Origin: Bacteroidia bacterium
GTDB taxonomy: Bacteria > Bacteroidota > Bacteroidia > 2-12-FULL-35-15
DNA length: 64,000 bases
NCBI GenBank assembly: GCA_039937835.1
Contig: JBDTFR010000022.1
Coordinates: forward strand, 5,769 to 69,768
Direction of reading: 5' to 3'
Below the pieces are notes generated by a model that worked only from the letters and a program-made list of their open reading frames with translations, was not told where the DNA came from and searched no databases. Positions 13,764 to 64,000 of the stretch are shown in pieces (position 1 is the first letter of the stretch; every line of letters starts with the position of its first letter). The translations under genes and the position numbers were made by a program.

Positions 13764-13936
13764 CTTTTTTATTTATTAAAGAAACAAACGTTTCTTTAGT
13801 ATTTCGATAGCAATATTAATACATAAATTGAGGTGTAAAAACCGCATTTAGTAAATGGCAAGGTATCTTTATTGAATGGTTGGAATTTAAACTTAAGTGG
13901 TAAAAACGGATAAGAAATGAACTAACTTAAAAAAAA

Positions 13937-14006
13937 GATCGGAGATTTTATATATTAACCTAACAACATCCCCATGTGCTAATTAATTATTTTAAAATCT
14001 CCGACC
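13937..14006. repeat. Repeat copy 2 hairpin (core 13955-13986)
   Basis: Arms GATCGGAGATTTTA / TAAAATCTCCGACC. The arm sequences differ from copy 1 but stay complementary. Confidence 0.7.
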
Positions 14007-14185
14007 TTTTCTAAACTAAAGAACAAAAAACCCTTTTTATTATTTCTACTGCAATATTAAGCTAAAAGTGAATAGATTAAATCGATCAATTAGTAGAAGG
14101 TAAGAAAATTTTATTGAGCGGTAGAAAACAAATGGTAAACGGTTTTGATGTAACTAAAAAAACGGAACTTCGTTTATAAAAAAAA

Positions 14186-14255
14186 GGTTCGAAAATTTAC
14201 TCATTAACCTAACAACATCCCCATGTGCCAATTAATTTTTGTAAACCTTCGACCC
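14186..14255. repeat. Repeat copy 3 hairpin (core 14204-14235)
   Basis: Arms GGTTCGAAAATTTAC / GTAAACCTTCGACCC, partly complementary. Confidence 0.65.
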
Positions 14256-14392
14256 TTTTTTCTTTTAAAGGAAGGTTGCCCTTCCCTTGTTTCGACAACA
14301 ATGATACGCAAGAAAGTGTTGTACAAATACCGCAAATGAGCCGATGGTGAGAGAATGTTATTAAACGGCAGTAAATTACCAGTAAGCGGCTT

Positions 14393-15142
14393 TTAAATAA
14401 GCGATAATTTTTCTAAAAATTCATTTTTATTTCTTCGAGATACCTCTACTTTAGAATCATCTGACATAACAACGTAACCACCTTCGCCTTTAATATACTT
14501 TTTTGCATGCACTAAATTTATTAGATGAGAGCGATGAACCCGAAAAAAATTATCTTCCGCAAACATTTGCTCATATTCCCCAAGAGTGCGAGAAGCAACT
14601 ATTTTTTTACCCGTTGTGAGGATGAAGAAAGTATAGTTACCATCTGAATCACAACGAATAATATCGGAAAGATTTATAAAAATTAATCCTTCCCCATCAG
14701 GAATCCCTACTTTTTTTAATTTATTTTCTGGACGAACGTTCGAAAGCAAGGCTTTAAACTGTTCATCAAAACCATTGCCTTTATTTAATTTTTTTTCTAG
14801 GCGGTTAACTGCCTCTACAAGTTCTTCAGGGTCTATTGGTTTTAATAGGTAATCAATAGCACTGAATTTAATGGCTTTAATGGCATAATGGTCATAAGCT
14901 GTAGTAAAAATAATACTAAACGTAATATCTTTAAATTTCTCTAATAAGTCAAATGCATTACCGTTGGGCATTTCTATATCTAGAAAAATTAAATCGGGCT
15001 TATGATTGGTAATGGCTTCAAAACCAGTTAACATAGAATCAGCTTTTGCTACAATTTGCAATTGTTTGCAATTTTTTTCAATCATTTTAGACAATGATTC
15101 TCTTGCTCCAGATTCATCATCTATAATTATGGTCTTTATCAT
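14393..15142 (-). CDS. LytTR-family two-component response regulator (REC + LytTR DNA-binding domain)
   Basis: N-terminal receiver (IIIDDE, phospho-acceptor Asp in LIFLDIEMP) and a C-terminal LytTR domain (FFRVHRSHLINL). Confidence 0.9.
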   Translation of the reverse strand: MIKTIIIDDESGARESLSKMIEKNCKQLQIVAKADSMLTGFEAITNHKPDLIFLDIEMPNGNAFDLLEKFKDITFSIIFTTAYDHYAIKAIKFSAIDYLLKPIDPEELVEAVNRLEKKLNKGNGFDEQFKALLSNVRPENKLKKVGIPDGEGLIFINLSDIIRCDSDGNYTFFILTTGKKIVASRTLGEYEQMFAEDNFFRVHRSHLINLVHAKKYIKGEGGYVVMSDDSKVEVSRRNKNEFLEKLSLI

Positions 15143-18120: not shown

Positions 18121-19204
18121 CTAACAGATCGCCGTTTCCATTTTTATTTTTAAAAAAAGCATCCCAACCCTGAGCTACCAGTGGAAAGGAGGTTCCAGCA
18201 TTTGTAATTAAATTTACTCCATCTTTTATATTTGTAATATGTCCAATAACCGATATATCTGGATTTGCTTTTATTTTTGAAAAATCAGAAGCGTCAATCG
18301 TAAAAAGTAATTCATAGTCTTCTCCCCCGCTTAATGCACATAGGGTGGGGTCAAGGTTAAATTCGCGAGCCATGTTATAAGTAGAGGGGTCAATTGGAAT
18401 CTTTTCTTCATATAAACTACAACCTACTTCAGATTGTGTGGTCAAATGTAAAATTTCAGAAGCTAAACCATCTGATATATCAATCATCGAAGTAGGTTTT
18501 ACTTCTAATAATTTTAATAAAGGAGGAATGTCTTTACGCGCTTCTGGTTTTAATTGACGTTCTAGTATATAATCATTTCCTCCTAAGTCGGGCTGTACGT
18601 TTGGCGTTTCAATATATATTTGTTTTTCTCGCTCTAATAATTGTAACCCTACGTAAGCACCCCCCAAATCACCAGTAACACAAAGCAAGTTTCCTTCTTT
18701 AGCACCATTGCGATAAACAATATCTTTTTCATCTGCTTCACCAATTGCCGTAATGCTAATAACCAAACCCGATTTGGAAGTGGTGGTGTCTCCTCCAACA
18801 ATATCCACCTGATGTTTTTCACAGGCTAGTAACATTCCTGAATAGAGTTCTTCCATTGCTTCCACCGAAAAACGGTTAGATAAAGCAAAAGAAACCGTTA
18901 TTTGTTTAGGGATTGCATTCATAGCGTAAATATCTGATAAATTGACTGATACAGCCTTATATCCCAAATGTTTCAGAGGTACGTATGTTAAATCAAAGTG
19001 TACTCCTTCTACTAACATATCGGTAGTTATAACGGTTTGTTTGCCTTTATAGTCAATTACCGCAGCATCATCACCCACTCCTTTTAGGCTACTTTCATTT
19101 TTTAATTTTATAAATTGAGTCAGGTGTTTTATCAAACCAAACTCTCCTAAACTACTTAATTCTGTACGTGTTGTATTTTCTAGCATAAACGAATTTTGTT
19201 GCAA
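18110..19204 (-). CDS. thiL: Thiamine-monophosphate kinase
   Basis: ELSSLGEFGLI N-terminal block, AIR-synthase-like fold (GDDAAV, VGGDTT). Overlaps the kinase gene by 11 bp. Confidence 0.8.
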   Translation of the reverse strand: MQQNSFMLENTTRTELSSLGEFGLIKHLTQFIKLKNESSLKGVGDDAAVIDYKGKQTVITTDMLVEGVHFDLTYVPLKHLGYKAVSVNLSDIYAMNAIPKQITVSFALSNRFSVEAMEELYSGMLLACEKHQVDIVGGDTTTSKSGLVISITAIGEADEKDIVYRNGAKEGNLLCVTGDLGGAYVGLQLLEREKQIYIETPNVQPDLGGNDYILERQLKPEARKDIPPLLKLLEVKPTSMIDISDGLASEILHLTTQSEVGCSLYEEKIPIDPSTYNMAREFNLDPTLCALSGGEDYELLFTIDASDFSKIKANPDISVIGHITNIKDGVNLITNAGTSFPLVAQGWDAFFKNKNGNGDLLDAN

Positions 19205-19495
19205 AAATACTTTTTTAAAATGGATTATTAAATAAACGCTAATTATGGAGTAAGTAACTATAAAGGATGCTTCAAGAAATGAATTTATAAGCAGGTATTT
19301 TTTAACAGAATAATTCTTTTAGAATAGTAGTCAAGTATAAATTTATTTAGATGGCTACATAAATAATAATGGTTTATTGTAAAACAGCAGAGAGCAGTAA
19401 GCAGAATAGATTTCGTCTTATTTTTTATACTGTTCGATTTTTTTATAAGGTAAATTAGCTTTATCTTTACTTAAGTATAAACTAGCAAATACCAA

Positions 19496-20833
19496 ATGAA
19501 AATGATTAAAAAAAGCTACGTAACACTTTTTTTCTTAGCAGGGAGTTATTTTTTACAAGCTCAGATAACTACCTCAGAGGAACTGGTTAAGAGGTGCGGA
19601 ACCATGGAACACATGGAGTATTTGAAACAGCAAGATCCTACCTTAGAGAAACAATTAGAAGATTATGATAAAGTGCTTGACCAGTGGGTGGCAAAGCATC
19701 CCAGTGGCGATAAAAGTCGTGCAACAAGAATTATACCCATAGTGTTTCATATTGTTTACAATAAAGACGAAGAAAACATTTCTGATGCAAAAGTTTTATC
19801 ACAGTTAAAAGCGGTTAATGAAGATTTTTCTAGAACCAATGCAGATACAGCACTAACTCCTAAGGAATTTAAAAGCGTTGCGGGCAATCCAAATATCCAA
19901 TTTTGCTTAGCTACCATTGATCCTTCTGGAAAACCTACCACTGGAATTGATCGTGTAAAAACAAGCGCAACGGGATTTAGCACGGATGATAAAATAAAAT
20001 ATACGTCGAGTGGTGGTGCTGATGCGTGGGATGTAACAAAATATTATAATATATGGATTGGTAATTTAACGGGTGGGCTATTAGGTTATGGAGAATTTCC
20101 TACCAGCAGAGCTTCTAAAACGTATGGTTATGTTGGACTTTATAGGAGTACTGGTACTACTTCCGATGTAAAGGCACCTTACAATAAAGGCAGAACAACC
20201 ACCCATGAAATGGGGCACACGTTTAACTTAAGACATATTTGGGGCGATAACGGACAGTGCGGTGGGTCAGATAACGTGATTGATACTCCTCCACAAAAAG
20301 GCGGATCGAAATCCCCTGCTGGCTCTAATTTTGGTAAGCCTGTATATCCTTTAAATAAAGGTGCATGCACTCGACCAGATGGTGCTGGTGGAGCTAATGT
20401 AACTAATGTTAATGGTGATATGTTCATGAATTACATGGATTATTCAGATGATGATGTTATGAATATGTTTACTAAAGGACAAGTTGCTAGAATGGATGCT
20501 GTTATGAATAATGCGCCGTATAATAAGCTATTTCTTTCTAATGCTTGTGCTGTTGCCACTAACGTATCTGGTTTAACAAATGATTTATCTTTTAGTATTT
20601 ACCCTAACCCTAATGAAGGTAATTTTAATTTAATATTTAGCACCTCCGTTAAGGCGTCTTATAAAATAGAAATAAACAATGCCTTGGGTCAATTAGTTTA
20701 TAAAGAAGAATTGAAAGATTTTAATGGTGAATATTCACAAGCATTAAATGTTGCAAAATATGGTAAAGGTGTTTATACAGTGAGTATATTAAACAATCAA
20801 AACCAATCAGTAAAAAAATTAATGGTTTATTAA
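19496..20833 (+). CDS. Secreted M43-family (cytophagalysin/pappalysin-like) zinc metalloprotease with T9SS C-terminal sorting domain
   Basis: Signal peptide, HEMGHTFNLRH zinc-binding motif, and a C-terminal ~80-aa beta-sandwich ending KKLMVY, typical of Por/T9SS CTDs. Confidence 0.7.
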   Translation: MKMIKKSYVTLFFLAGSYFLQAQITTSEELVKRCGTMEHMEYLKQQDPTLEKQLEDYDKVLDQWVAKHPSGDKSRATRIIPIVFHIVYNKDEENISDAKVLSQLKAVNEDFSRTNADTALTPKEFKSVAGNPNIQFCLATIDPSGKPTTGIDRVKTSATGFSTDDKIKYTSSGGADAWDVTKYYNIWIGNLTGGLLGYGEFPTSRASKTYGYVGLYRSTGTTSDVKAPYNKGRTTTHEMGHTFNLRHIWGDNGQCGGSDNVIDTPPQKGGSKSPAGSNFGKPVYPLNKGACTRPDGAGGANVTNVNGDMFMNYMDYSDDDVMNMFTKGQVARMDAVMNNAPYNKLFLSNACAVATNVSGLTNDLSFSIYPNPNEGNFNLIFSTSVKASYKIEINNALGQLVYKEELKDFNGEYSQALNVAKYGKGVYTVSILNNQNQSVKKLMVY

Positions 20834-36292: not shown

Positions 36293-36541
36293 ATGGAACT
36301 TTCAATTATAAACATAGGAAACTCGAAGGCAATTATACTTTCGAAAACAATTCTTGAGAAATATAGTATTACTGATAAAATAGAAATAATACTAGAAAAA
36401 GGGTATATCATTTTGAAACCCAAAACAGCGCCTCGTAAAGGTTGGGAAAAAGCATTCAAAATAATGCACGAAAAAGGTGATGACCAACTTTTAATGAATG
36501 ATATTTTTGAAGATGAAACTTTTGAAGAGTGGAATAAATAA
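36293..36541 (+). CDS. AbrB/MazE/SpoVT-family antitoxin (MazE-like)
   Basis: 82 aa. N-terminal swapped-hairpin block (GNSKAIILSKTILEKY) and an acidic C-terminus, followed within 10 nt by a PemK/MazF-homologous frame. Confidence 0.75.
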   Translation: MELSIINIGNSKAIILSKTILEKYSITDKIEIILEKGYIILKPKTAPRKGWEKAFKIMHEKGDDQLLMNDIFEDETFEEWNK

Positions 36542-36562
36542 ATCAATCAATATGAAATTGTA

Positions 36563-36859
36563 TTGGTTAATCTTGATCCAACGATAGGAAGCGAAATGAA
36601 AAAGATGAGACCTTGTGTTATAATATCACCAAATGAAATGAACAAATATTTACAAACCAACGTTGTAGCGGCAATGGCAAGTAGTTCGAAGCCATATCCT
36701 ACAAGAGTTGAAGTTAAACATAAAGGTACAAAAGGTTGGATAGCGATTAATCAAATTCGGACAATAGATAGATTAAGAATTGTAAAACGTTTTGAAATTT
36801 TAACCGAGAAGGAAATAGAGAAAGTAAAAGCAGTTATGAAAGAAACGTTTGTTGATTAA
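36563..36859 (+). CDS. PemK/MazF-family type II toxin (mRNA interferase); start codon uncertain
   Basis: LVNLDPTIGSEMKKMRPCVIISPNEMN is a canonical PemK N-terminus. Homology (YEIVLVNLDP) begins at 36551, directly after the antitoxin TAA (36539-41), in the same frame and with no in-frame ATG. Candidate starts are ATT 36557 or TTG 36563. Confidence 0.7.
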   Translation: MVNLDPTIGSEMKKMRPCVIISPNEMNKYLQTNVVAAMASSSKPYPTRVEVKHKGTKGWIAINQIRTIDRLRIVKRFEILTEKEIEKVKAVMKETFVD

Positions 36860-36982: not shown

Positions 36983-37228
36983 ATGGATAAAGATAATAGT
37001 CAACAAAAGGAACAAGTCAACAACCCCTTACATGGCTTGAAGCTGGCAACTATTGTAGAGGTGCTTGTGGAAAAGTATGGCTGGGAAAGTTTAGCAATGA
37101 AAATTAATATCAAATGTTTTAAAGACAACCCTTCCATTAAATCTAGCCTAACGTTTTTAAGAAAAACACCATGGGCAAGAGATAAAGTGGAACAGCTTTA
37201 TCTTAATTTAGAAAAGAAAAAGAAATAA
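36983..37228 (+). CDS. VF530 / DUF2132-family small DNA-binding protein
   Basis: 81 aa. The [41 protein letters not shown] block matches the VF530 family signature. Confidence 0.7.
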
Positions 37229-54584: not shown

Positions 54585-56633
54585 ATGATAAAAAAGAGAA
54601 TAGTTTTAATTAATCGTGAATTAAGTTGGTTGTCTTTTAATGAACGGGTATTACAAGAAGCGCAAGATGCAACAGTACCTTTAATTGAAAGAATAAAATT
54701 TTTAGCAATTTATTCAAATAATTTAGATGAGTTTTTTCGCGTTCGTGTAGCTACTCTTAAACGAGTAATAAAACTTCAAAAAAAAACGAAAAAGTTCCTC
54801 ACCGAAAACCCTCAACAATTACTTTATAAAATTCAGCGAGTAGTTATTGAGCAACAACAAAAGTTTGAAGATACCTATCAAAAACTTTTAAAAGAACTTG
54901 AAAAATTTTCTATTTCTATTATAAATGAAAAACAATTAAGTTCGGAGCAAGGTACATTCGTTACTCAATATTTCCGCGAACAAGTAATGCAGTTCTTGTT
55001 TCCAATAATGATGGAGAAAGAGACTCCTTCTCCTTATTTAAAAGATCATTCTGTTTATTTAGTAATTAAACTGGAATGTAATCGCAAGAAGAAAAAAACG
55101 AAATACGCATTGTTAGAAATATCCGTAGATCCGCTTTCTCGGTTTTTTGTTTTACCCAATAAAAATAAGCAAAGCTATATTATTTTGCTTGATGATGTTA
55201 TTCGGCATAACTTAAATCATGTATTTAGCAATTTTGACTATGATAATATTGAGGCCTATACCATTAAGTTAACTAGAGATGCTGAATTAGATATTGACAA
55301 CGACATCTCGAAAAGCTTTGTAGAAAAAATTTCTAAAGGACTTAAACAACGTAAAAAAGGTTCGGCCGTTAGGTTGGTATATGATCATGAAATACCATCT
55401 GAGATGTTAAGTTTTATTATGAAAAAACTTAATTTAGGCAAAGAAGATACTCCTATTCCCGGTGGACGATACCATAATTTTAAAGATTTTATTTCTTTCC
55501 CCAATATTGGTACACCAGCGTTAAGCTATCAAAAAACAATTCCGCTAAAACACCCTGATTTAAAAGATCAATCTACTTTATTTAAAGTCATCAAACAAAA
55601 AGATGTGTTGATTACTTACCCGTACCAAACGTTTGATCACGTGATCGATTTGTTGCGGGAGGCCTCCATTGATCCTAAAGTAAAAAGCATAAAAATTACC
55701 TTGTATCGCGTTGCTAGAAACTCAAGCATTGTAAAAGCATTAATTAATGCGATAAAAAATGGTAAACAAGTTACAGCAGTGGTAGAGTTACAAGCCCGTT
55801 TTGATGAAGAAGCAAATATGTATTGGGCAGGCAAACTGAAAGAGGAAGGAGCAACCGTTATTTATGGGGTACGAGGATTAAAGGTGCATTCTAAAATGTT
55901 CATCATTTCTCGTCAAGAAGGAAAAGAGCGAATCAATTACGTGCATGTAGGCACAGGCAATTTTAACGGAAAAACAGCACTTATCTATACCGATCATAGT
56001 CTACTCACTTGTGATAAACGGATTACCGGAGAAGTAGAGCGTGTATTTTCTTTTTATACCAATAATTTAAAAAAGGGAACCTATAAACATTTATTGGTTT
56101 CTCCTTTTTTTATGCGGAAAGAATTATTGAAACTTGTTAATAAAGAAATTGCCATAGCGAAAACGGGAAAGCCAGCTTCTATTATTTTAAAAATAAATAA
56201 TTTGGTAGATGAAGAAATGATAAAAAAATTATACGAAGCAAGTACAGCCGGTGTAAAAATAAAATTAATTATAAGAGGCATTTGTTCACTAGTGGCAGGT
56301 GTTAAGGGTTTAAGTGAAAACATTGAAGCCATAAGCATTGTAGATAAATTTTTAGAGCACAGTCGTTTTTTTATATTTCATAACGATGGAAAGGAAAAAT
56401 ATTTTTTATCTTCGGCAGATTGGATGGTACGTAGTTTAGACCATCGCTCTGAAGTGGCGGTTGCCATTTATGATAAAGGTATTCAACAACAACTGCGAAC
56501 TATTTTTGATGCGATGTGGGCAGATAATACAAAGGCAAGAATATTAGGGAGCGAACAAAAAAATGAATACCGAAAAACAAACACGAAAACAAAAATACGC
56601 GCACAAGAAGTTATTTATAATTTATTTCATTAA
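54585..56633 (+). CDS. ppk: Polyphosphate kinase 1
   Basis: 682 aa. N-terminal LINRELSWLSFNERVL, the autophosphorylated His region (KVHSKM), and two PLD-like C-terminal domains. Confidence 0.95.
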   Translation: MIKKRIVLINRELSWLSFNERVLQEAQDATVPLIERIKFLAIYSNNLDEFFRVRVATLKRVIKLQKKTKKFLTENPQQLLYKIQRVVIEQQQKFEDTYQKLLKELEKFSISIINEKQLSSEQGTFVTQYFREQVMQFLFPIMMEKETPSPYLKDHSVYLVIKLECNRKKKKTKYALLEISVDPLSRFFVLPNKNKQSYIILLDDVIRHNLNHVFSNFDYDNIEAYTIKLTRDAELDIDNDISKSFVEKISKGLKQRKKGSAVRLVYDHEIPSEMLSFIMKKLNLGKEDTPIPGGRYHNFKDFISFPNIGTPALSYQKTIPLKHPDLKDQSTLFKVIKQKDVLITYPYQTFDHVIDLLREASIDPKVKSIKITLYRVARNSSIVKALINAIKNGKQVTAVVELQARFDEEANMYWAGKLKEEGATVIYGVRGLKVHSKMFIISRQEGKERINYVHVGTGNFNGKTALIYTDHSLLTCDKRITGEVERVFSFYTNNLKKGTYKHLLVSPFFMRKELLKLVNKEIAIAKTGKPASIILKINNLVDEEMIKKLYEASTAGVKIKLIIRGICSLVAGVKGLSENIEAISIVDKFLEHSRFFIFHNDGKEKYFLSSADWMVRSLDHRSEVAVAIYDKGIQQQLRTIFDAMWADNTKARILGSEQKNEYRKTNTKTKIRAQEVIYNLFH

Positions 56634-56645
56634 ACATACTTACTA

Positions 56646-57548
56646 TTGAAATTTGCAGCAATTGACATTGGTTCTAATGCATTACGATTATTGTTTTGCA
56701 ATGTATATGAAGAGGGGAATGGTAGTGTTTCTTTTAAAAAAGCAGAACTTATTCGAATTCCTTTACGATTGGGAGAAGACTCATTTCTGTTCGGTAAAAT
56801 TTCAGAAGAAAAAACAGAGAAACTCATCGCTTCCATACAAGCATTTAAACAATTAATTAAAATTAATGAGCCGCACAGTTATAGAGCATGCGCTACTTCT
56901 GCCATGCGCGATGCGTCCAATGGATCTGATATTATAAAACGTATTTATGCAGAAACAGGAGTAACCATTGAATTGATAGATGGTAAAACAGAAGCGAGCA
57001 CCATTTATGCAAATCACATTGAAAAGGACTTAAATAGTAAAACAGCTTATTTGTATATTGATATCGGTGGAGGTAGCACGGAGCTTACTTTATTTCATAA
57101 AAAAGAAATAATAGTCTCTCAATCGTTTAATATTGGTACCATACGTATGTTGCACAATCAAATTGATAAAGAGCAATGGAGCGCTTTTAAAAACTGGGTT
57201 GAAAAGAATACAAAAGAGCATAAGCCTATTATAGCAGTGGGCTCAGGTGGCAATATTAATAAGCTTTTTAAAATGTCGGGTAAAAAGCCCAATAAAGCCA
57301 TTACCACCGTAAAGCTAAAAAGTTTGTATGAGCTATTGGCTTCCTACACGTATGAAGAACGCATTAAAATTTTAGCACTCAATCCCGATAGAGCAGATGT
57401 AATTATACCCGCCTCTAAAATTTTACTTACCATTTTAAAAAAAGCAAACATAGAAAAAACCATTGTGCCTCAAATTGGTTTGGCAGATGGAATTGTACAC
57501 CAACTTTATGAATCGTATTTGAAAGAAAAAGAATTGAAAGTGGTTTAA
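56646..57548 (+). CDS. ppx: Exopolyphosphatase / Ppx-GppA family phosphatase (TTG start)
   Basis: AAIDIGSNALRLL actin-like ATPase-fold N-terminus. 13 bp after the ppk stop. The ORF opens with TTG. Confidence 0.85.
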   Translation: MKFAAIDIGSNALRLLFCNVYEEGNGSVSFKKAELIRIPLRLGEDSFLFGKISEEKTEKLIASIQAFKQLIKINEPHSYRACATSAMRDASNGSDIIKRIYAETGVTIELIDGKTEASTIYANHIEKDLNSKTAYLYIDIGGGSTELTLFHKKEIIVSQSFNIGTIRMLHNQIDKEQWSAFKNWVEKNTKEHKPIIAVGSGGNINKLFKMSGKKPNKAITTVKLKSLYELLASYTYEERIKILALNPDRADVIIPASKILLTILKKANIEKTIVPQIGLADGIVHQLYESYLKEKELKVV

Positions 57549-57765
57549 ACTTTCTTTTGTTAGGGCTCAGTTATAAAAATATTAAAGCAATTAAATTAAG
57601 ATTGATTTACTAAATTTGAGGTAGAGATATAATGCGGGTATGTGTAATACATTTATTCGCATGTTATCGGCAACCCTATGACGTTTGAACAGACCAAACA
57701 AGTAAAGAAAAGAAAACACTTAACAACAGACAAAAAATATAACTTTAGCAAATAATTATACGACA

Positions 57766-59154
57766 ATGAAAATAAATTCATTTACAGCAGAAGGGGTTCA
57801 CGACTACTTAAAATTTGACATAAAGTTTTTTCCAGACTTGACTTTTCTTATAGGAATAAATGGTTCAGGTAAAACAAGTGCCCTCAAACTAATTTTGGGA
57901 TTAACATCACCTTCTTACCAATATTTAAATCAATTGAATTATCAGTTTTGCGAAGTTATTTGCAGTAGCAAAAAAGACGAAAAAGATATTGTTCTAAGAG
58001 CAGAACAAAATAAGGCAGACAACACATTTACATTCAGCATAACTCGGAATGGCATTAAGGTTAGTTCCGAACCAATAAAGAGGTTTTCTCGTGGTGAAAA
58101 TATTCAATATGACTTTGAGGAGTTATCGCAAATCGAACAAAGACACAAAGAATCATTTGATGAATTAGAGGTAACACGAAAAATAAGAGAATTAGCTACA
58201 CCTAAATTTTTGGGGTTAGACAGAAGAATCTATGAAGGAGTAAATGCTGACTTTAGATTTAGAAACAGGAGACATCAACAATTTATAAATCCTAAATACC
58301 GTAATAGGAGATATGACGGCTTTCCAGAGCCACAAGCAATTGATTTAAGTCTTGAAGAAGTTCAAATGTTTGTTTTTGATTTTATAAGACAAATTCCTCA
58401 ACAACAATTTCAAATAAGCGATGAATTCAAGGAAAAATTATTTAAGGAATCCTTTAAATTCTACGAAGACTCTACAGTTGGAAAAATCCCCCCCACATCA
58501 GAAATTATCGAAAGAAAAGAAAAGGTTCTAAAAGCAATAGAAGATTTAGGTATTAAATATATCAATTACTCAATTAACGATTTCTTTAGCAAGATTGAAA
58601 AGATTGCCAAGGAATTCGAAAAGATTGACAAAAAAGAAAAGGAAAATATGCTTTCTCCACAGTATCGTGAAATAATTAGTCAATGGTATCTAAATGGAAA
58701 CCAACTTAAACGAATTGATGATATTATTACTTATAGCCAAGAGTATCAAAAGAAAATTATAGAATTAAAGGCACCACTTAAGAAATTGGAAGAACTTACC
58801 TCAAACTTTTTAGGAGAAGGAAAAAAAGTTCTACGAACTGAAACCGATGGTGAATTAAAAATAAAGTTGAAGAATGGACATTCAGCAAATATTTATGAAT
58901 TGTCTTCAGGTGAAAAGCAAATTATTATAATGATTGCTCATTTAATTTTCGAAGAAGCACAGAAGACTTCGGGCATATTTATTATTGATGAGCCTGAACT
59001 TTCTTTACATATTGCTTGGCAAGAGATATTTGTTCAGTCAATAATGCAAGCAAGCCCTAACACACAATTTATTCTGGCGACACATTCTCCTTCAATTATT
59101 GCTAAAGTTGACAAGGAAAAACATTGCCAAGATTTAAACAAATTTAATTTCTAA
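57766..59154 (+). CDS. AAA15/AAA21-type ABC ATPase (SMC/RecF-like) of a two-gene defence module; AriA/OLD-ATPase-like
   Basis: Walker A GINGSGKTSALK at residue ~30. About 330 aa of helical/coiled-coil insertion, then the ABC signature LSSGEKQ, Walker B IFIIDEPELSLH, the D-loop and H-loop ATHSP. 462 aa. Confidence 0.8.
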   Translation: MKINSFTAEGVHDYLKFDIKFFPDLTFLIGINGSGKTSALKLILGLTSPSYQYLNQLNYQFCEVICSSKKDEKDIVLRAEQNKADNTFTFSITRNGIKVSSEPIKRFSRGENIQYDFEELSQIEQRHKESFDELEVTRKIRELATPKFLGLDRRIYEGVNADFRFRNRRHQQFINPKYRNRRYDGFPEPQAIDLSLEEVQMFVFDFIRQIPQQQFQISDEFKEKLFKESFKFYEDSTVGKIPPTSEIIERKEKVLKAIEDLGIKYINYSINDFFSKIEKIAKEFEKIDKKEKENMLSPQYREIISQWYLNGNQLKRIDDIITYSQEYQKKIIELKAPLKKLEELTSNFLGEGKKVLRTETDGELKIKLKNGHSANIYELSSGEKQIIIMIAHLIFEEAQKTSGIFIIDEPELSLHIAWQEIFVQSIMQASPNTQFILATHSPSIIAKVDKEKHCQDLNKFNF

Positions 59155-59157
59155 ATT

Positions 59158-59997
59158 ATGCTTGAATTAAGTGACGAGCCAAAAAGATTGGTATCAACAT
59201 TTTTGACTTACCGCAACGAAATTGATATTTATACCGAAGATGAATTGAAGGACAAAGAATTTTATAAAGTTCTTTTTAGCAGACTTCTTGAAAATAAAAT
59301 AAATATAAATGACATAACTCCTTTGGGAGCGAGAAAAAACGTAATAAAAAGATGTGAAACGGAACCGGATAATGGTAGGAAAAAGATATTTATTATTGAC
59401 GGTGATGTAACTATAATACACGGCAAAAACATTCCAGCTCTTAAAAATCTTTTCGTTTTAGACGCATATTGTATTGAGAATTTTGTTATTGACGAACAAA
59501 GCGTTCTTAATTTTATTTACTTGAATTGTGCCTCTAAACCAAAGGAAGAAATTGCGAACGAATTAAAATTTGAAAATTGGTTAAATGGCTATTCCAATAA
59601 TCTTGTTGACCTTTTTATTCATTTTGGTATAACTGATTTCTTTGGTGGGAAGTTCAAACTATTCAACGCACATAAATTTCACCCGAAGGAAAACTATTCC
59701 GAAGAAATAGTAGAACAAGACATTGTAAAATTGAAGGCTGAAATCTTACTTCTTACTACTCAAGAAAACTATGAACTCAAATATGAGGAGCTAAAAAATC
59801 AATGGACAAATTGTGTTTCAAGTTTAATGACAATTGTATCAGGTAAGGACTACTTAATTCCTATTTTATTATTTAAAACACAATGCTACAAAAAATCAAA
59901 AGCAATGCCGACAGTTGAAGAAGCTAAATTTATGCTCGCTCAAAATTGTAATCTTGACCGACTCTCAAAACTGAAAGAGGCAATTGAAGCACTTTGA
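59158..59997 (+). CDS. DUF4435/TOPRIM-like (OLD-family nuclease-like) partner of the ATPase; AriB-like effector candidate
   Basis: Starts 4 bp after the ATPase stop. Conserved acidic residues in the spacing expected for a TOPRIM fold: Glu in IDIYTEDE (about aa 25-28) and DxD in KIFIIDGD (about aa 78-82). 279 aa. The domain call was made by eye and was not confirmed with an HMM search. Confidence 0.55.
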   Translation: MLELSDEPKRLVSTFLTYRNEIDIYTEDELKDKEFYKVLFSRLLENKININDITPLGARKNVIKRCETEPDNGRKKIFIIDGDVTIIHGKNIPALKNLFVLDAYCIENFVIDEQSVLNFIYLNCASKPKEEIANELKFENWLNGYSNNLVDLFIHFGITDFFGGKFKLFNAHKFHPKENYSEEIVEQDIVKLKAEILLLTTQENYELKYEELKNQWTNCVSSLMTIVSGKDYLIPILLFKTQCYKKSKAMPTVEEAKFMLAQNCNLDRLSKLKEAIEAL

Positions 59998-60756
59998 ACG
60001 TAATAAACCAAATTAGGACTGATAGAAGGGCAGCCGATAACAGCACCTATAAAAAATTGGCGGTTCAGTGGTTAAATGAAGTTTTGTTCTTCGTATCAAG
60101 TTTAGTGGTGGCAGACAGTTTATTGCTTCGAAATCGCCAACTTCTTATAGCTGCCAAAACGTGTGTGTCTTGAATCAGCAACGCATCTGAGTTGTTGAAT
60201 GCTATTTAAAAGATGGAAGACAAAAATGTGAAGGATAAATAATGTAGTGGAGCTCAAGCGAAATGAGTGGCCGTGCAACCAAACAAATTTGAGTGGCCTT
60301 CCAAAGACGGCTGTCAAGAGCAGTCTTTAAACCACCTGATGCTGCATTAAGAGGAAACTATTTTTGTGGTGAACGATTAGGAAAAACAGGAACACGTATT
60401 CCTGTAGGTGCATATATAGGAGCTGAATAAAATGAACTACCTATTAAGCCTCGTAAGCGCAATAGACAGAGCCGAAAACAGATAGCTACGTTTGTATTTG
60501 TGATAAGGGTGTAATGGACGACTTGATTGCTGATTACATGGCTCTCGGGGTAAAGGTAGCAGGAACTATATACAGGCTTTTAAATGGAACAAGAGAAATC
60601 GATACTGCGCTATTAAATTGTAAAAAGGAGCTAGCCATACAATGGATGTATGAAGTATCGGTGGCAGACCAGCTTGTAGTAGTGATAAAGTTACTGAAAG
60701 GTAATGGAGCGAAGAGGCTGGCTAGTTTAACTTTATAAAATGCACAACCGAAAGGG

Positions 60757-61980
60757 ATGATTGATTATTATGAAGTAAAATCACAGCCAATCACCAGGCT
60801 AATGGTTTGGCAGGCATACAGGAAAGTTAGAGCCAACAAAGGAAGTGCTGGCATAGATAATATGAGTTGGGAGTATTTAGACAACAATCTAAACACTGAA
60901 TTATACAAACTATGGAACAGAATGACCTCAGGCAGCTACTTTCCTCAAGCCGTTAAAGAAGTTAGCATTAAGAAAACAGACGGAGGGGAAAGAAAACTAG
61001 GAATTCCTACCTTGCTGGACCGTATAGCACAAGAAGTGGTAAAATCATATTTAGAGCCATTAGTAGAACCAATATTTCATCACAGTAGCTTTGGTTATCG
61101 ACCTAAAAGAAGCAGTCATGATGCAATTGCTCAATCGTGCAAGAATTGTTTCGGACATGATTTTGTGATAGATCTAGACATCAAAAGTTTCTTCGACATG
61201 ATGGATCATGAATTGATGATAAAATCAGTTGCTAACTATTGCAAAGAAAAATGGGTAATACTATACATCACTAGATGGTTAAAAGCAGGTATAGTGCAAA
61301 AAGAGGTTGGCTACGTAGATAGGTTAACAGGTACTCCGCAAGGCGGCGTAATAAGCCCTTTAATAGCCAATTTGTTTATGCATATTAGTTTTGATAAATG
61401 GATGGATAAATATCATTCAGAAAAGCCATTCGAACGTTATGCAGATGATATAGTGGTGCATTGCAAAACAGAGAAACAAGCGCTATTTATGTTAAGACAA
61501 ATAGAGCAACGCTTGACAAAACGCAAACTAGAGTTGCATCCCATTAAAACAAAAATTGTTAACTTACGAGGATCTGCAGTTGCAAACTATAGTAAGTCTT
61601 ACGACTTTCTTGGGTTTACAATACAACCTCACTGGTGCAAGATTAAGGGCAAAGGGATGCTACTTCCAAGTATTTTTATAAGCAAGAAATCTGAAAAGCG
61701 AATATTGTACAAATTTAAATCTATGCAAATACACAAACGGCGCAAACCAATAGAATTGCTAGCAAAAGAATTACGGCCAATTGTTCAAGGCATCATCAAC
61801 TATTATGGTAAATTTTCGACAGGACATCTAAGATTTTTGTGCCATCAAATAAATGTGCGCTTACTTAAATGGGTGAAATGGGAAAAGGGACTATACAAGA
61901 TGAAAGCTTTACAATGGCTAAGAGGAAAATTTCAATCCAACCGAAAACTTTTCCCACACTGGTTATTGGTAAATCCATAA
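60757..61980 (+). CDS. ltrA: Group II intron reverse transcriptase/maturase (RT domains 0-7 + X/thumb, no En domain)
   Basis: 407 aa. RT motifs: QAYRKVRANKGSAGIDNMSWEY (RT0/1), FGYRPKRSSHDA (RT2), GTPQGGVISPLIANLFM (RT4), RYADDIVVH (the YADD catalytic box). The maturase X region ends the protein, with no HNH or Zn domain. Confidence 0.9.
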   Translation: MIDYYEVKSQPITRLMVWQAYRKVRANKGSAGIDNMSWEYLDNNLNTELYKLWNRMTSGSYFPQAVKEVSIKKTDGGERKLGIPTLLDRIAQEVVKSYLEPLVEPIFHHSSFGYRPKRSSHDAIAQSCKNCFGHDFVIDLDIKSFFDMMDHELMIKSVANYCKEKWVILYITRWLKAGIVQKEVGYVDRLTGTPQGGVISPLIANLFMHISFDKWMDKYHSEKPFERYADDIVVHCKTEKQALFMLRQIEQRLTKRKLELHPIKTKIVNLRGSAVANYSKSYDFLGFTIQPHWCKIKGKGMLLPSIFISKKSEKRILYKFKSMQIHKRRKPIELLAKELRPIVQGIINYYGKFSTGHLRFLCHQINVRLLKWVKWEKGLYKMKALQWLRGKFQSNRKLFPHWLLVNP

Positions 61981-62010
61981 CTAATAAATACATTCGTGAT
62001 TGAACTAGAA

Positions 62011-62044
62011 GAGCCGTGTGAAGGGAGACTTTCAAGCACGGTTC
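62011..62044 (+). ncRNA. Group II intron catalytic domain V
   Basis: 34-nt hairpin matching the DV consensus GAGCCGUAUGCGAUGAAAGUCGCACGUACGGUUC, including the AGC triad and the G-U pair. Confidence 0.85.
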
Positions 62045-62102
62045 CGTGGGAACGGAAGGGTGAAACTCCCTTGCGTGACCCGATTAGGGAGCAATATGTG
62101 AT

Positions 62103-62127
62103 GGTCTACACAAAAGACCTTTTTTTA
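62103..62127 (+). terminator. Rho-independent terminator immediately 3' of the intron
   Basis: GGTCT-ACACAAA-AGACC followed by TTTTTTT. Confidence 0.55.
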
Positions 62128-62163
62128 TTTGGAGATGGTTGTCTGATTAGTTAACTTTGTGCT

Positions 62164-62511
62164 GTGAGTTTCGAACGACAAGTAATAGCTTATAAAAAAT
62201 ATTTTCTAGACTTTTATAAGGAACAGTCTGGTAACGTTCAGGCGAAAATTGAGTGGACGTTGGAGTTAATAAGGGTAAATAAACAGATTCCTGAGAAATA
62301 TTTTAAACATATGGCCGGGACGAAAGGACTCTATGAAGTTAGAGTTGAAGTCGGAAGTAATATTTTTAGAATTTTTGCATTCTTCGATAAAGGGAATTTG
62401 GTTGTATTAGGGAACGCTTTTCAAAAGAAAACTCAAAAGACCCCTAAACTTGAAATTGAAAAGGCACTTAAAATAATGGAGGAATATAATTATGAAAAAA
62501 ATAGCAAGTAA
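62164..62511 (+). CDS. higB: HigB-like / Gp49 (PF05973-like) RelE/ParE-superfamily type II toxin (GTG start)
   Basis: GLYEVRVEVGSNIFRIFAFFDKGNLVVLGNAFQKKTQKTPKLEIEKALK is the hallmark block of the phage-related HigB/Gp49 toxin family. The ORF opens with GTG. Confidence 0.75.
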   Translation: MSFERQVIAYKKYFLDFYKEQSGNVQAKIEWTLELIRVNKQIPEKYFKHMAGTKGLYEVRVEVGSNIFRIFAFFDKGNLVVLGNAFQKKTQKTPKLEIEKALKIMEEYNYEKNSK

Positions 62512-62800
62512 AAATATCACGACCTTAGACGAGATTCTTGACAAGAAATACGGAAAGAAAGGCGCTCCGAAACGTGAAAAATGGGAACAAGAGTTTGAAG
62601 CATTTCGACTCGGTGCATTACTTGAAGAAGCGCGCTTGAAAATGGGTTTAACACAAGAGGAACTCGCTGAAAAATGTGGAACAAATAAATCATATATTTC
62701 CCGCATCGAGAATAATGCATCAGACATAAGACTTTCCACACTTATGAAAATTATTCAGCAAGGCCTCGGTGGTCATTTAAAGCTAACACTTCAACTTTAG
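62492..62800 (+). CDS. higA: XRE-family HTH antitoxin (HigA-like)
   Basis: Overlaps the toxin gene by 20 bp. HTH in LTQEELAEKCGTNKSYISRIENN. 102 aa. Toxin-first gene order, as in higBA. Confidence 0.75.
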   Translation: MKKIASKNITTLDEILDKKYGKKGAPKREKWEQEFEAFRLGALLEEARLKMGLTQEELAEKCGTNKSYISRIENNASDIRLSTLMKIIQQGLGGHLKLTLQL

Positions 62801-63022
62801 TTTAAAAATAGCACATACCCGTAGCATCGATTTTACATATTGGCGAGCTAATCGCTTCGTATGAAACTAATCAGTAAATTTGAATGCTGTGTTTAGTAGT
62901 AGACCTATTCCTAAAACACGCCACTATGCAAAGCCCAGTTCGTTCGGCGTAATAAAAAAACGAAACCCGAGAAATAGTTTGAGTATATACTATTAATATA
63001 TACCTTTGTAGAAAATAGCATT

Positions 63023-63253
63023 ATGAAAACTCTATCTTTAAAACTTGACGACAAGATTTTTGACGAGGCCGAGGAAATGACCTCGAAACTGAAACTCGCT
63101 AGAAACCGTTATATTAACGAGGCAGTTAATATATACAACCTGTTTAATAAAAAGAAACTTCTTAAAAATCAATTAATAAAAGAGTCCAAACTAACAAGTA
63201 AAGACTCCATGGATGTTCTGCGTGAATTTGAAAAATTAATAGATGGAGATTAA
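63023..63253 (+). CDS. Putative antitoxin (small, helical) of a MazEF/PemIK-like pair
   Basis: 76 aa. It overlaps the downstream PemK/MazF-family gene by 11 bp and is assigned by position and size only. Confidence 0.5.
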   Translation: MKTLSLKLDDKIFDEAEEMTSKLKLARNRYINEAVNIYNLFNKKKLLKNQLIKESKLTSKDSMDVLREFEKLIDGD

Positions 63254-63578
63254 GCAGTTTGATATTTGGCTTGCTGATCTAAATCCAGCTCGCGGAACAG
63301 AACCAGGAAAAACAAGACCCGTTGTAGTGGTTCAGACAAACTTACTTAATGAAATGCATCCATCTACAATAATTTGCCCGATTGCTTCAAAAGTAAATAA
63401 TGAAATTTTATTGTTGAGAGTTCATTTAAAGAAAAATCAGCTCGATAAACCAAGCGATATTCTTATTGATCAAATACGATCTATAGATAACAAAAGGTTG
63501 CTCAAGAGGCTTGGGAAATTAACAAAAGAGCAAGCTCAAACGCTAAAAACAAATATTAGAATTGTTCTAGACATTTAA
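63243..63578 (+). CDS. PemK/MazF-family type II toxin (mRNA interferase)
   Basis: IWLADLNPARGTEPGKTRPVVVVQ (PemK N-terminal signature) plus the downstream ICPIAS and LIDQIRSIDNKRL blocks. 111 aa. Confidence 0.8.
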   Translation: MEIKQFDIWLADLNPARGTEPGKTRPVVVVQTNLLNEMHPSTIICPIASKVNNEILLLRVHLKKNQLDKPSDILIDQIRSIDNKRLLKRLGKLTKEQAQTLKTNIRIVLDI

Positions 63579-63654
63579 ACACATGCCCTAACATCATTTA
63601 TAGCAGATGCCCTTCGGGACATACACCATACACTTACCGTTCAATACCATTAAA

Positions 63655-64000
63655 ATGAATTCAAACATAATCTATATAAAAAATATGGTTTGCCCACGTT
63701 GCATCGACGTGGTAAGAGATATTTGTGAAGAATTAAACATCTCTATAAAGAAAATTCAATTAGGTAAAATAGAAAGTACTTCAGAAATAAGTGATAATTT
63801 AAAATCTAAACTAAGTGATTACTTAACAGAAAGAGGATTCGAATTACTTCAAGATAAAAATCAAAAAATTATTGAAGAAATTAAAACGATAATCGTAACA
63901 CAAATACACCATTCTAAAGAACAGTTAGCCATTAACTTTTCGGCGCACCTTTCTGAAAAATTACATCAAGAATATTCATCACTTAGCCGTCTCTTTTCAT
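63655..64000 (+). CDS. 5' part (partial, runs off window) of an AraC-family transcriptional regulator with N-terminal MVCxRC-type ligand/metal-associated domain
   Basis: ATG at 63655 (MNSNIIYIKNMVCPRCIDVV...). The N-terminal module is common in Bacteroidota AraC/XylS regulators. The expected C-terminal HTH lies outside the window. Confidence 0.5.
   Translation, partial: MNSNIIYIKNMVCPRCIDVVRDICEELNISIKKIQLGKIESTSEISDNLKSKLSDYLTERGFELLQDKNQKIIEEIKTIIVTQIHHSKEQLAINFSAHLSEKLHQEYSSLSRLFS

Follow-up and report, generated by a model that had tools for sequence, protein, structure and literature searches.

Integron arrays are rich in toxin–antitoxin (TA) and defence cassettes (10.1101/2024.07.02.601686), and both attC site clusters that have no integron integrase (CALINs) and cassette integration at secondary sites have been described (PMC4889954). 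Bacteroidota are among the phyla listed with integrons (PMC8618304), and in Bacteroidetes IntegronFinder 2.0 detected hardly any complete integrons (PMC9024848). In PARIS (phage anti-restriction-induced system), the AriA scaffold holds AriB, and upon sensing of phage proteins AriB is released and tRNA is degraded (PMC11464382, PMC10802454, PMC9122126). Class C group II introns insert after terminator-like stem-loops, and the classical IIC-attC introns sit in the attC bottom strand and run antisense to the genes of the cassettes (PMC3001079). Here a window of 64,000 nucleotides (nt) from a Bacteroidia bacterium (assembly GCA_039937835.1, contig JBDTFR010000022.1) was analysed, which is AT-rich Bacteroidota DNA of 33.5% GC. 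Its interval 57549–63654, between the stop codon of ppx (57548) and an open reading frame (ORF) starting at 63655, carries all its genes on the plus strand: the PARIS-type pair ariA and ariB, a group II intron, and a HigBA-like and a MazEF-like TA module (Table 1). With a probability of roughly 0.55, this interval is an orphan, CALIN-like array of integron-type cassettes together with a site-homing class C intron on the sense strand. An initial annotation, made from the sequence, had listed the genes of these ~6 kb after ppx; every one was found in its place and on its strand, and the ATPase and TOPRIM pair listed there proved to be a PARIS-type system.

Judged by its sequence boundaries, AriAB is a bounded mobile module that recurs across contexts. 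AriB homologs at 87–93% identity occur in other lineages, including a Kapabacteria metagenome-assembled genome (MAG; 87%, P0012), and three AriAB contexts were read, namely L162/L163 (a 1.26-Mb JGI contig), L164 (the Kapabacteria MAG) and L173. In each of them ariA and ariB have the same lengths as in the window and the neighbours are unrelated; nucleotide identity to the window is 83% for L162/L163 (57722–60091), 82% for L164 (57733–60041) and 76% for L173. Homology is restricted to the AriAB module (57722–60091), and in L164 it stops at the box, at 60041. The module starts at G57663|TTATCGGCAACCCT and ends, thirty bases past the ariB stop, in AGGGCAGCCGATAAC, the reverse complement of its start (8/8 positions complementary; 12/14 over the longer stretch). 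L173 has TTAGCGGCAACCCT / AGGGCAGCCGCTAA as its start/box pair, in which T>G is compensated by A>C. In L162 and L164, AriAB is preceded by a short hairpin whose loop reads TAATAC, similar to the leader hairpin of the window.

The box at the end of AriAB is followed by a hairpin. Its R′′ box is CGATAAC (60035–41), its stem 60047–60062 pairs with 60135–60150, and the spacer CTGCCAAAAC leads to G60161 and T60162. The same architecture stands upstream of all homologous intron copies with a readable 5′ flank, and it is uninterrupted in L162, L173 and L174. These hairpins form a covarying family. Their stems, and sometimes their loops, vary in sequence, and in a seven-site alignment (A3) 93% of cells were paired, as compared with 27–42% when the 3′ partner was slid by 1–3 columns; 14 of the 18 stem pairs had changed on both sides, and none of 500 shuffles matched any measure of pairing or covariation. 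The covariance model built from this alignment (R1) gave a single strong match in the 64-kb window (120.7 bits). Sites that had not been used for training were matched strongly, with 104 bits (L169), 116 and 105 (L178), 52.7 (L165b), 39.4 (L175), 37.5 (L182), 31 (L174c3) and 28.6 (L165a), and 1.5 Mb of unrelated Bacteroidota loci returned one marginal match. A generic scan for AAC...GTT hairpins and a stem-matching scan were set aside in favour of the covariance model, as shuffled sequence matched them as often.

Family sites are about 60–135 nt long, with a conserved form of ~123 nt (a ~125-nt hairpin in the window). Their 5′ boxes read nnnTAAC (for example, GCCTAAC or GCATAAC) and their 3′ boxes GTTAGGC, GTTATGC or GTTAGGT, and the spacer measures 1 nt on the 5′ side versus 5–10 nt on the 3′ side. 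Boxes of the nnnTAAC and GTTAGGC type are the textbook core sequences of integron attC sites. In boxes, length, covariation and cassette rule the family of the window site agrees with attC, whereas its spacer geometry differs from the textbook form. Folding energies of the top and the bottom strand showed no consistent bias.

Outside the window, the hairpin family follows unrelated gene modules, and in three loci (L174, L178 and L182) it adjoins Xer/IntI-like tyrosine recombinases. In L174, which was reached via an intron homolog, a 491-amino-acid (aa) tyrosine recombinase is followed by same-strand, unrelated genes that are separated by hairpin sites, and the start/box pairs of its cassettes are exact complements (TTATGGGC / GCCCATAA; TTAGCGTT / AACGCTAA; TTGTACGC / GCGTACAA). 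As a test of the prediction, L178 and L182 were fetched by recombinase homology alone and then inspected for the site: in L178, TTATGCGT…ACGCATAAC stands directly after the recombinase, and in L182 (the isolate Pedobacter cryophilus, GCA_005116455.1) TTAGCAGC…GCTGCTAAC precedes the family hairpin of 37.5 bits. Co-oriented small genes make up the L182 array, among them two ParE pairs and one MNT/HepT pair. L180 ends just past its recombinase, and its box and G|TT junction sequence are those of L174 and L178. In all, complementarity between the 8 nt that open a cassette after G| and its own box is complete (8/8) in 8 cassettes, five of which are unrelated (L174 c1–c3, L178 c1 and L182 c1), as compared with a mean of 4.4/8 and a maximum of 7 for mismatched cassette/box controls. 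Furthermore, L166 and L167 do not differ over the intron and the next 3196 nt downstream (100% identity), and their identity is 59% in the 130 nt of hairpin upstream; this breakpoint, exactly at the hairpin/intron junction, points to cassette shuffling.

These observations bear on the possibility that the interval is a generic defence island, gathered by unspecified horizontal transfer, whose hairpin is the ariAB terminator targeted by a class C intron. This is unlikely, even if class C introns do insert after terminator-like stem-loops (PMC3001079), the window holds a single intact hairpin and no recombinase, and defence and TA genes are generally found together. The hairpin lacks a T-tract, while its conserved AAC/GTT boxes and conserved mismatches are features that a terminator does not need; moreover, it recurs with covariation behind unrelated genes, the cassette starts complement their own boxes at 8/8 positions, and it adjoins tyrosine recombinases in the three loci. 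The defence-island reading of the initial annotation stands as to the accessory defence and TA content and is too vague as to mechanism.

The window also contains two nested pairs of inverted boxes, an outer one (TGTTAGGGC, 57558–57566, with GCCCTAACA, 63585–63593; exact reverse complements) and an inner one (TGTTATCGGCAACCCT, 57662–57677, with AGGGCAGCCGATAACA, 60027–60042). Direct repeats at the flanks, for which the initial annotation had suggested a check, do not exceed chance. The inverted boxes could be taken for the ends of a transposon, AriAB being a non-autonomous element resembling a miniature inverted-repeat transposable element, with 16-bp repeats (TGTTATCGGCAACCCT / AGGGCAGCCGATAACA), nested in a larger TGTTAGGGC / GCCCTAACA element; the TG...CA-type ends of the nested boxes and the L164 homology, which ends exactly at the right repeat, would fit. 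We regard this as highly improbable: target-site duplications were not found, no transposase is associated with AriAB in any of the four contexts, and unrelated cassettes obey the same rule, always with the hairpin and G|TT to follow. Compensatory changes, moreover, keep start and box complementary, as suits a folded site.

The recombinases next to the sites are of two types, a large one of ~475–490 aa with a ~215-aa N-terminal extension and one of 308 aa, and they are often co-oriented with the array. Isolates of Pedobacter, Daejeonella, Cytophaga and Pontibacter, among others, encode this recombinase family. Their scores fall below the cutoff of the integron integrase model TIGR02249 (167–197 versus 265), and their best structural relatives are XerA/XerC-like proteins. 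In addition, IMG/VR scanned with the recombinase gave one distant partial homolog, without hairpins, and among the papers searched there was no description of such arrays in Pedobacter or its relatives.

A canonical integron remnant, or true CALIN, with ordinary attC sites, an IntI encoded elsewhere and Xer-like recombinases as coincidental neighbours, is improbable on this evidence. In its favour are the R′′/R′ boxes (GCCTAAC, GCATAAC / GTTAGGC, GTTATGC), the length of 60–135 nt and the cassette rule, and against it is a spacer geometry unlike that of textbook attC. The Xer-like recombinase, moreover, abuts the first crossover site in L174, L178 and L182, where the first cassette obeys the rule. 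Arrays without a nearby intI are common (PMC4889954) and integrons are listed for Bacteroidota (PMC8618304), yet IntegronFinder 2.0 recorded almost no complete ones there (PMC9024848). A further-reaching reading, which we hold only tentatively, is that Bacteroidota possess an integron analogue of their own, consisting of an Xer-like recombinase without the IntI insertion, a junction of an ATAAC box and G|TT immediately past the recombinase gene, and a covarying hairpin family of ~60–135 nt, and that the window is an orphan outpost with three cassettes. Its parts would include the 475–490-aa recombinase with a novel N-terminal domain and its 308-aa relative, often with a Cys-rich partner; it would capture and shuffle cassettes with TA modules and with entire defence systems (PARIS here, and BrxC-like ATPase/helicase, SMC-like, NERD-helicase and DNA methyltransferase genes elsewhere), and a dedicated class C intron lineage would have evolved to home to its sense-strand crossover box.

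Several side observations were made at these loci. L178 contains two identical copies of the 308-aa Xer/IntI-like recombinase (13920–15037 and 18381–19512), one of them beside an IS91-like Y2 transposase; each copy is transcribed away from a hairpin site with a strong score (105 and 116 bits), and the second such site is followed by an N6/N4 DNA methyltransferase cassette. The protein looks like a second recombinase type linked to the hairpin sites. In four loci a Cys-rich ORF of 125–128 aa lies divergent from the large recombinase gene (50–75% identical, no significant Pfam family; Table 1) and could encode a partner or regulator of the recombinase. In L182 (14099–17330), a second repeat family of ~90 nt (…CCAATCTGGTTTC…TTCCTTTTTCAGG.TCACTGAAA…AATGAAGA…AAGTTG.C.GGC) follows ParE and other cassettes and may be another site family. 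Defence-type genes occur at further hairpin/intron loci (L165 1–3107; L175 1935–6105 and 12273–13982), namely a BrxC/BrxD-like ATPase with a DEAD helicase, a Metallophos protein with a 993-aa SMC-like ATPase, and NERD with an SLFN-like helicase. The AraC gene at the end of the L174 array has no homology to the gene that flanks the island in the window.

The intron of the window extends from GUGUGUC to GACCCGAU. Rfam places domains D1–D4 at 60291–60409 (RF01999, 68.6 bits) and D5/D6 at 62009–62084 (RF00029, 58.3 bits), with the intron-encoded protein (IEP) between them, and these two intron families were the sole matches of an Rfam scan of the whole window. The boundaries were set by the homologs L165–L172, in which homology runs from 60153/60162 to 62086; a start at 60161 was rejected, as it would leave no GTT. 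Eight other copies, with IEPs 80% identical, were compared. Their 5′ exons end in …AAAMCGT (one L174 copy has an extra G) and their 3′ exons start with TAGGG, TAGGC, TATGC, TAGGT, TATAG or TAGCG, and the uninterrupted sites of L162 and L173 read ...ACGTTAG.... The intron thus splits the R′ box as GT|TRRRY, one base from the crossover. In the window the context is …AAAACGT|intron|TAGGG, and the same spot is occupied in the 8 sites with a readable 5′ flank; there, as in the window (hairpin 60047–60150), the hairpin ends 12 nt before the intron.

The IEP has a YADD motif and Pfam domains RVT_1 and GIIM only, without an endonuclease domain, and scores 380 bits with NCBIfam group_II_RT_mat (cutoff 300). 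The closest solved protein is the GsI-IIC reverse transcriptase (RT; 6ar1), and the next PDB entries (7uim, 5hhj and 5hhl) are likewise group II intron RT/maturases, which we take to be class C proteins. The IEP is 100% identical to a protein of an NCBI Bacteroidia MAG (75-kb contig, P0121), and its best plasmid-borne matches reach 44–47% identity. A stem-loop target is the hallmark of class C introns. The window intron lies in sense orientation, however, co-oriented with ariAB, higBA and mazEF as well as with the L174 cassettes and recombinase, and not on the bottom strand as in the IIC-attC lineage. By sequence it is class C-like, and it behaves like an IIC-attC intron but fails the defining orientation of that lineage. 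A reading of the array on the minus strand, by which the intron would be a classical bottom-strand IIC-attC intron, had been prompted by the L164 homology stop at the box and by the longer 3′ arm; it was rejected, as L174, L178 and L182 show the order recombinase, crossover site and rule-obeying cassettes in gene orientation. The initial annotation had counted the intron as an island member in its own right, and it appears instead as a homing insertion; four small ORFs that it flagged by their neighbourhood as candidate genes (59994–60173, 60293–60430, 60514–60738 and 61996–62154) fall in the hairpin site or in RNA domains of the intron and do not qualify as candidates.

As a side observation, the 10-mer GGTGGCAGAC is present twice, once in the target hairpin's loop (60107–60116) and once in domain IV of the intron, upstream of where the IEP begins (60660–60669). 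Two pseudo-ORFs of similar appearance (KKLAVQW..VVAD) result from these copies; ~0.08 would be expected by chance, and the L174 hairpins do not conserve the motif.

The genes ariA and ariB are adjacent, co-oriented and 3 nt apart. Residues 8–446 of AriA give a full-length match to the solved E. coli AriA (8ux9_B/8v45, 1e-13), and its translation contains a Walker A motif (GINGSGKTS), a signature (LSSGEKQ), a Walker B motif (IFIIDEPE) and an H-loop (ATHSP). Because PtuA models score equally high on the C-terminal part, the assignment rests also on the AriB partner. In AriB, E27 and D81-x-D83 are invariant among 25 homologs. The AlphaFold2 model of AriB (pLDDT, the predicted local distance difference test score, of 89.7) has PARIS AriB chains as its top Foldseek matches in the PDB (8ux9_A and 8v46_D; probability 1.0, template modelling score 0.43–0.52), and the TOPRIM domains of OLD proteins rank after them; at the sequence level, phmmer against the PDB gave no match to solved AriB, and identity in the structural alignment is 9–12%. 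By analogy, release of AriB and degradation of tRNA is most likely the function of the AriAB pair in the window as well.

An AT-rich stretch ~25 nt upstream of the ariA start (57735–57765) is common to the window, L162 and L164 (ATATAACTTTAGC / ATATAACTTAAGC / TTCAACTTTGCC). It resembles what we take to be the Bacteroidota −7 promoter element, TAnnTTTG, which suggests a cassette with its own promoter.

After the intron, the sequence starts with (T)TAGGGAGC. The HigBA module that follows has toxin-first order and a 20-nt ORF overlap, its antitoxin matching NCBIfam HigA weakly (6.5e-4); the MazEF module has antitoxin-first order and an 11-nt overlap. The 76-aa protein at the MazE position gave no Pfam match, and its sequence pattern suggests a ribbon-helix-helix (RHH) protein rather than an AbrB-type MazE. 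MazEF homologs (58% and 54% aa identity) stand directly after AriAB in L173, with neither HigBA nor an intron between, the nucleotide homology covering 62962–63439 of the window. As to end sites, R1 matched after higA (62809–62957) with 12.6 bits (E 0.007 in a local search of 921 nt, 0.49 window-wide), and a short candidate read by eye after mazF consists of the box GCCCTAAC (63585–92) and then CCG63639|TTCAAT; this box complements both (T)TAGGG at 62085 and TTAGGGC at 57560. Both cassette ends are tentative calls from the sequence. The interval is read as three cassettes (AriAB, HigBA and MazEF), an intact site being present in the first alone. The 105-nt leader before them may be intergenic DNA native to the locus, what remains of a site, or a cassette with no ORF.

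Apart from the island, a second MazEF-like pair occurs at 36293–36859 of the window (an 82-aa ORF with no Pfam match and a 98-aa PemK toxin, 3.3e-24), with an 81-aa ORF downstream; a hairpin site was not detected beside the pair. The sequence AAAACGTTAGGC at 37157 falls within an ORF and was dismissed as a chance match.

Table 1. Features of the island and its flanks (window coordinates), and of the Cys-rich ORF at other loci (locus coordinates).
Feature	Position	Strand	Evidence or remarks
ppk1	54585–56633	+	Pfam 1e-70
ppx	56646–57548	+	Pfam 3.5e-42
ORF-less leader, ppx stop to AriAB module	57549–57663	+	G|TTAGGGC box (G57559|T57560); short hairpin 57632–57662 abutting G57663|TT
AriAB (PARIS) cassette	57664–60161	+	TTATCGGCAACCCT, ariA, ariB, own box AGGGCAGCCGATAAC at 60027–60041, hairpin, G60161
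ariA, AAA_15/AAA_21 ABC ATPase, 462 aa	57766–59154	+	Pfam AAA_21 1.4e-22, AAA_15 1.4e-21; PADLOC AriA 2.9e-27
ariB, DUF4435/TOPRIM nuclease, 279 aa	59158–59997	+	Pfam DUF4435 1.2e-19; PADLOC AriB 4.4e-20
attC-like hairpin site	60025–60162	+	covariance model R1, 120.7 bits; rest of R′ box (TAGGG) resumes at 62085
Group II intron, class C-like, 1922 nt	60163–62084	+	Rfam and homologous copies; splits R′ box GT|T
IEP (RT/maturase), 407 aa	60757–61980	+	RVT_1 3.7e-38, GIIM 8e-07
HigBA-type cassette (tentative site)	62085–62957	+	starts T(60162)+TAGGGAGC; decayed hairpin site 62809–62957 at end
Gp49/HigB-like toxin	62164–62511	+	PF05973 7.5e-20
HTH_3/HigA-like antitoxin	62492–62800	+	PF01381 4.2e-14
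MazEF-type cassette (tentative terminal site)	62958–63639	+	antitoxin candidate, PemK/MazF and short site
RHH-like antitoxin candidate, 76 aa	63023–63253	+	overlaps PemK/MazF ORF
PemK/MazF toxin	63243–63578	+	PF02452 8.3e-29
Start of flanking gene, earlier labelled AraC, outside the feature	63655–64000	+	ORF from ATG 63655, cut by window end
Cys-rich ORF, other loci	L174 6025–6402; L178 9524–9901; L180 9506–9892; L181 40–426	-	sequence conservation

The AraC label that the flanking gene had been given was left unconfirmed, a Pfam search of its 115 available N-terminal aa having returned no family.

For the ppx side, 160 ppk1-ppx loci from species-representative genomes and metagenomes were examined over 10 kb around each. 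The upstream block of SixA, a small protein, ppk1 and ppx is conserved across them, and none (0/160) carries island genes within 10 kb. This count, the three unrelated contexts of AriAB and the presence of the intron family in many other contigs uphold the view that the content is accessory and mobile. The closest relatives of Ppx in scans of genomes and metagenome contigs, at no more than 71% aa identity, belong to freshwater and soil Bacteroidia MAGs, and the genes that they have downstream of ppx are different ones and in part variable. Among those at ~70% (L002–L024 and L082–L089), the small genes that lie between ppx and a semi-conserved block of clusters (C0-C3-C6-C4-C7) differ from locus to locus; ppx may have a recurrently variable 3′ side. 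An exact look-up of Ppx returned only a 2.7-kb Logan contig with ppx and ariA, and those of the IEP (P0121) and MazF returned no record, so that neither the right flank nor the complete flanking gene was obtained.

Deviations in GC and codon usage, another check suggested at the outset, were not observed: the GC content of the island is 0.344 and that of the host 0.334±0.016, only the intron being higher (0.383), and GC, GC at third codon positions (GC3) and codon usage of the island genes equal those of the host, the codon distances being confounded by gene length and hence uninformative. This host-like composition is what would be expected had the order ppx-ariAB-...-mazEF been ancestral and vertically inherited, and there is no close relative to show its absence. 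Such an origin is nonetheless very hard to credit, given AriB at 87–93% identity in other lineages (87% in the Kapabacteria MAG) against a peak of 71% for Ppx, wholly different AriAB contexts, and ppk1-ppx loci devoid of island genes.

The preferred explanation, an orphan array of integron-type cassettes, would work as follows. A cassette would start just past G|TT and end in a box complementing its own first bases, an imperfect hairpin and the next G|TT, so that the excised circle carries one complete folded site. The predicted circular-cassette junction is …CCAAAACG|TTATCGGCAACCC…, and that of the AriAB circle ...CTTATAGCTGCCAAAACG|TTATCGGCAACCCTATG...; the intron-less site would read ...CCAAAACGT|TAGGGAGCAATATG..., and the empty chromosomal site ...CTTTCTTTTG|TTCAATACCATT... 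or ...TTATTCGCATG|TTCAATACC.... Integration and excision of the cassettes would be the work of a tyrosine recombinase acting in trans from elsewhere in the genome, most likely one of the ~475–490-aa Xer-like family found at the head of comparable arrays in other Bacteroidota; a secondary G|TT site downstream of ppx was probably where the array integrated. In the first cassette, sensing of a phage trigger would release AriB from the AriA ABC ATPase, whereupon host tRNA would be cleaved and the infection aborted; the HigBA-like and MazEF-like cassettes probably stabilise the array or add abortive-infection capacity. An intron of a class C lineage that homes to the 3′ base of this hairpin family would have retro-inserted at GT|T of the AriAB site, where it may be spliced from read-through transcripts, being on the sense strand, while physically splitting the recombination box. 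This is a concrete proposal, modules with the anatomy of integron-type cassettes, where the initial annotation had called the mechanism of insertion unknown; its remark that there is no tRNA flank agrees with a search of the whole window, which found no tRNA genes. For the window itself neither recombinase nor tRNA nor empty site was found, and its insertion is an inferred event.

Against the orphan-array reading weigh the following points. A CALIN, strictly defined, has at least 2 attC sites in a cluster (PMC4889954), and the window is a marginal case, with one intact family site (120.7 bits), one decayed (12.6) and one short candidate; the decayed site has the box CCCGTAGC in place of CCCTAAC, and R1 finds no match at the short post-mazF site. 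No homolog of the Xer-like recombinase family of the hairpin sites was found in the 64-kb window by tblastn (a general integrase scan was not run). An empty site was not found in the ppx scans, there being no Ppx relative above 71% and synteny being lost after ppx, and the composition carries no foreign signal. The left boundary is ambiguous (57559/60 or 57663/64), and the short hairpin left of AriAB that L162 and L164 share is not predicted by a simple cassette model; what follows the AriAB box in L164 and L173 is no hairpin of the family. Finally, alignments of the recombinases with IntI models and with VchIntIA (2a3v) fall into two stretches and leave out the IntI-specific insertion, and it is by analogy that Xer-like recombinases would recombine folded single-stranded sites.

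As a gene list, PARIS, HigBA, MazEF and a group II intron are ordinary; what is noteworthy is the cassette system, the non-IntI recombinases in Bacteroidota and the target mode of the intron. If the interval is indeed a cassette array, this would explain how PARIS and TA modules move among distant Bacteroidota without nearby phage, plasmid or transposase genes, and would extend the notion of integrons as defence biobanks to a phylum thought nearly integron-free and to another type of recombinase. The covariance model of the hairpin, together with the own-start/own-box rule, provides a searchable marker for cassette arrays and new defence genes in Bacteroidota metagenomes. Homing to the crossover box on the sense strand would be a new target mode for class C introns, and it raises the question whether the intron freezes cassette junctions or travels with the downstream cassette.

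Compared with known systems, the HigBA module shares with its type II TA counterparts the toxin-first order, a toxin of Gp49/RelE fold and an HTH_3 antitoxin, and the MazEF module shares antitoxin-first order, overlapping ORFs and a PemK toxin, but differs in that its MazE-position protein has no family match and is RHH-like by sequence pattern. With PARIS of the E. coli P4-like satellites (Rousset et al., PMC9122126; Burman et al., PMC11464382; Deep et al., PMC10802264), the AriAB pair has in common the two-gene architecture and sizes, the ABC ATPase motifs and the DUF4435/TOPRIM fold of AriB with E...DxD, for which solved AriB is the best structural match; the window proteins, however, are very divergent in sequence, and their system resides in a cassette of a free-living Bacteroidia genome and not in a hotspot of phage satellites.

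Group IIC-attC introns (S.ma.I2 lineage; Leon et al., PMC3001079) resemble the window intron in being of class C type without an endonuclease domain and in homing to a cassette recombination hairpin at the GTT box, with the stem-loop as 5′ exon; the classical introns lie between gene and attC on the bottom strand, whereas that of the window lies in the R′ box on the top strand, between the site and the next cassette. From sedentary chromosomal integrons and CALINs (Vibrio superintegron; Darracq et al., 10.1101/2024.07.02.601686; Cury et al., PMC4889954), the locus differs in its host phylum, in which complete integrons are almost unrecorded (PMC9024848), in site-adjacent recombinases that are Xer-like, lack the IntI-specific insertion and have either a ~215-aa N-terminal extension or a length of 308 aa, and in a site geometry of its own with a conserved ~123-nt form, the window holding one intact site. 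With them it shares co-oriented, promoter-bearing small modules, an imperfect hairpin with AAC...GTT boxes, a G|TT crossover, cassette starts that complement their own box, a content of TA and defence genes, and an array without an adjacent integrase.

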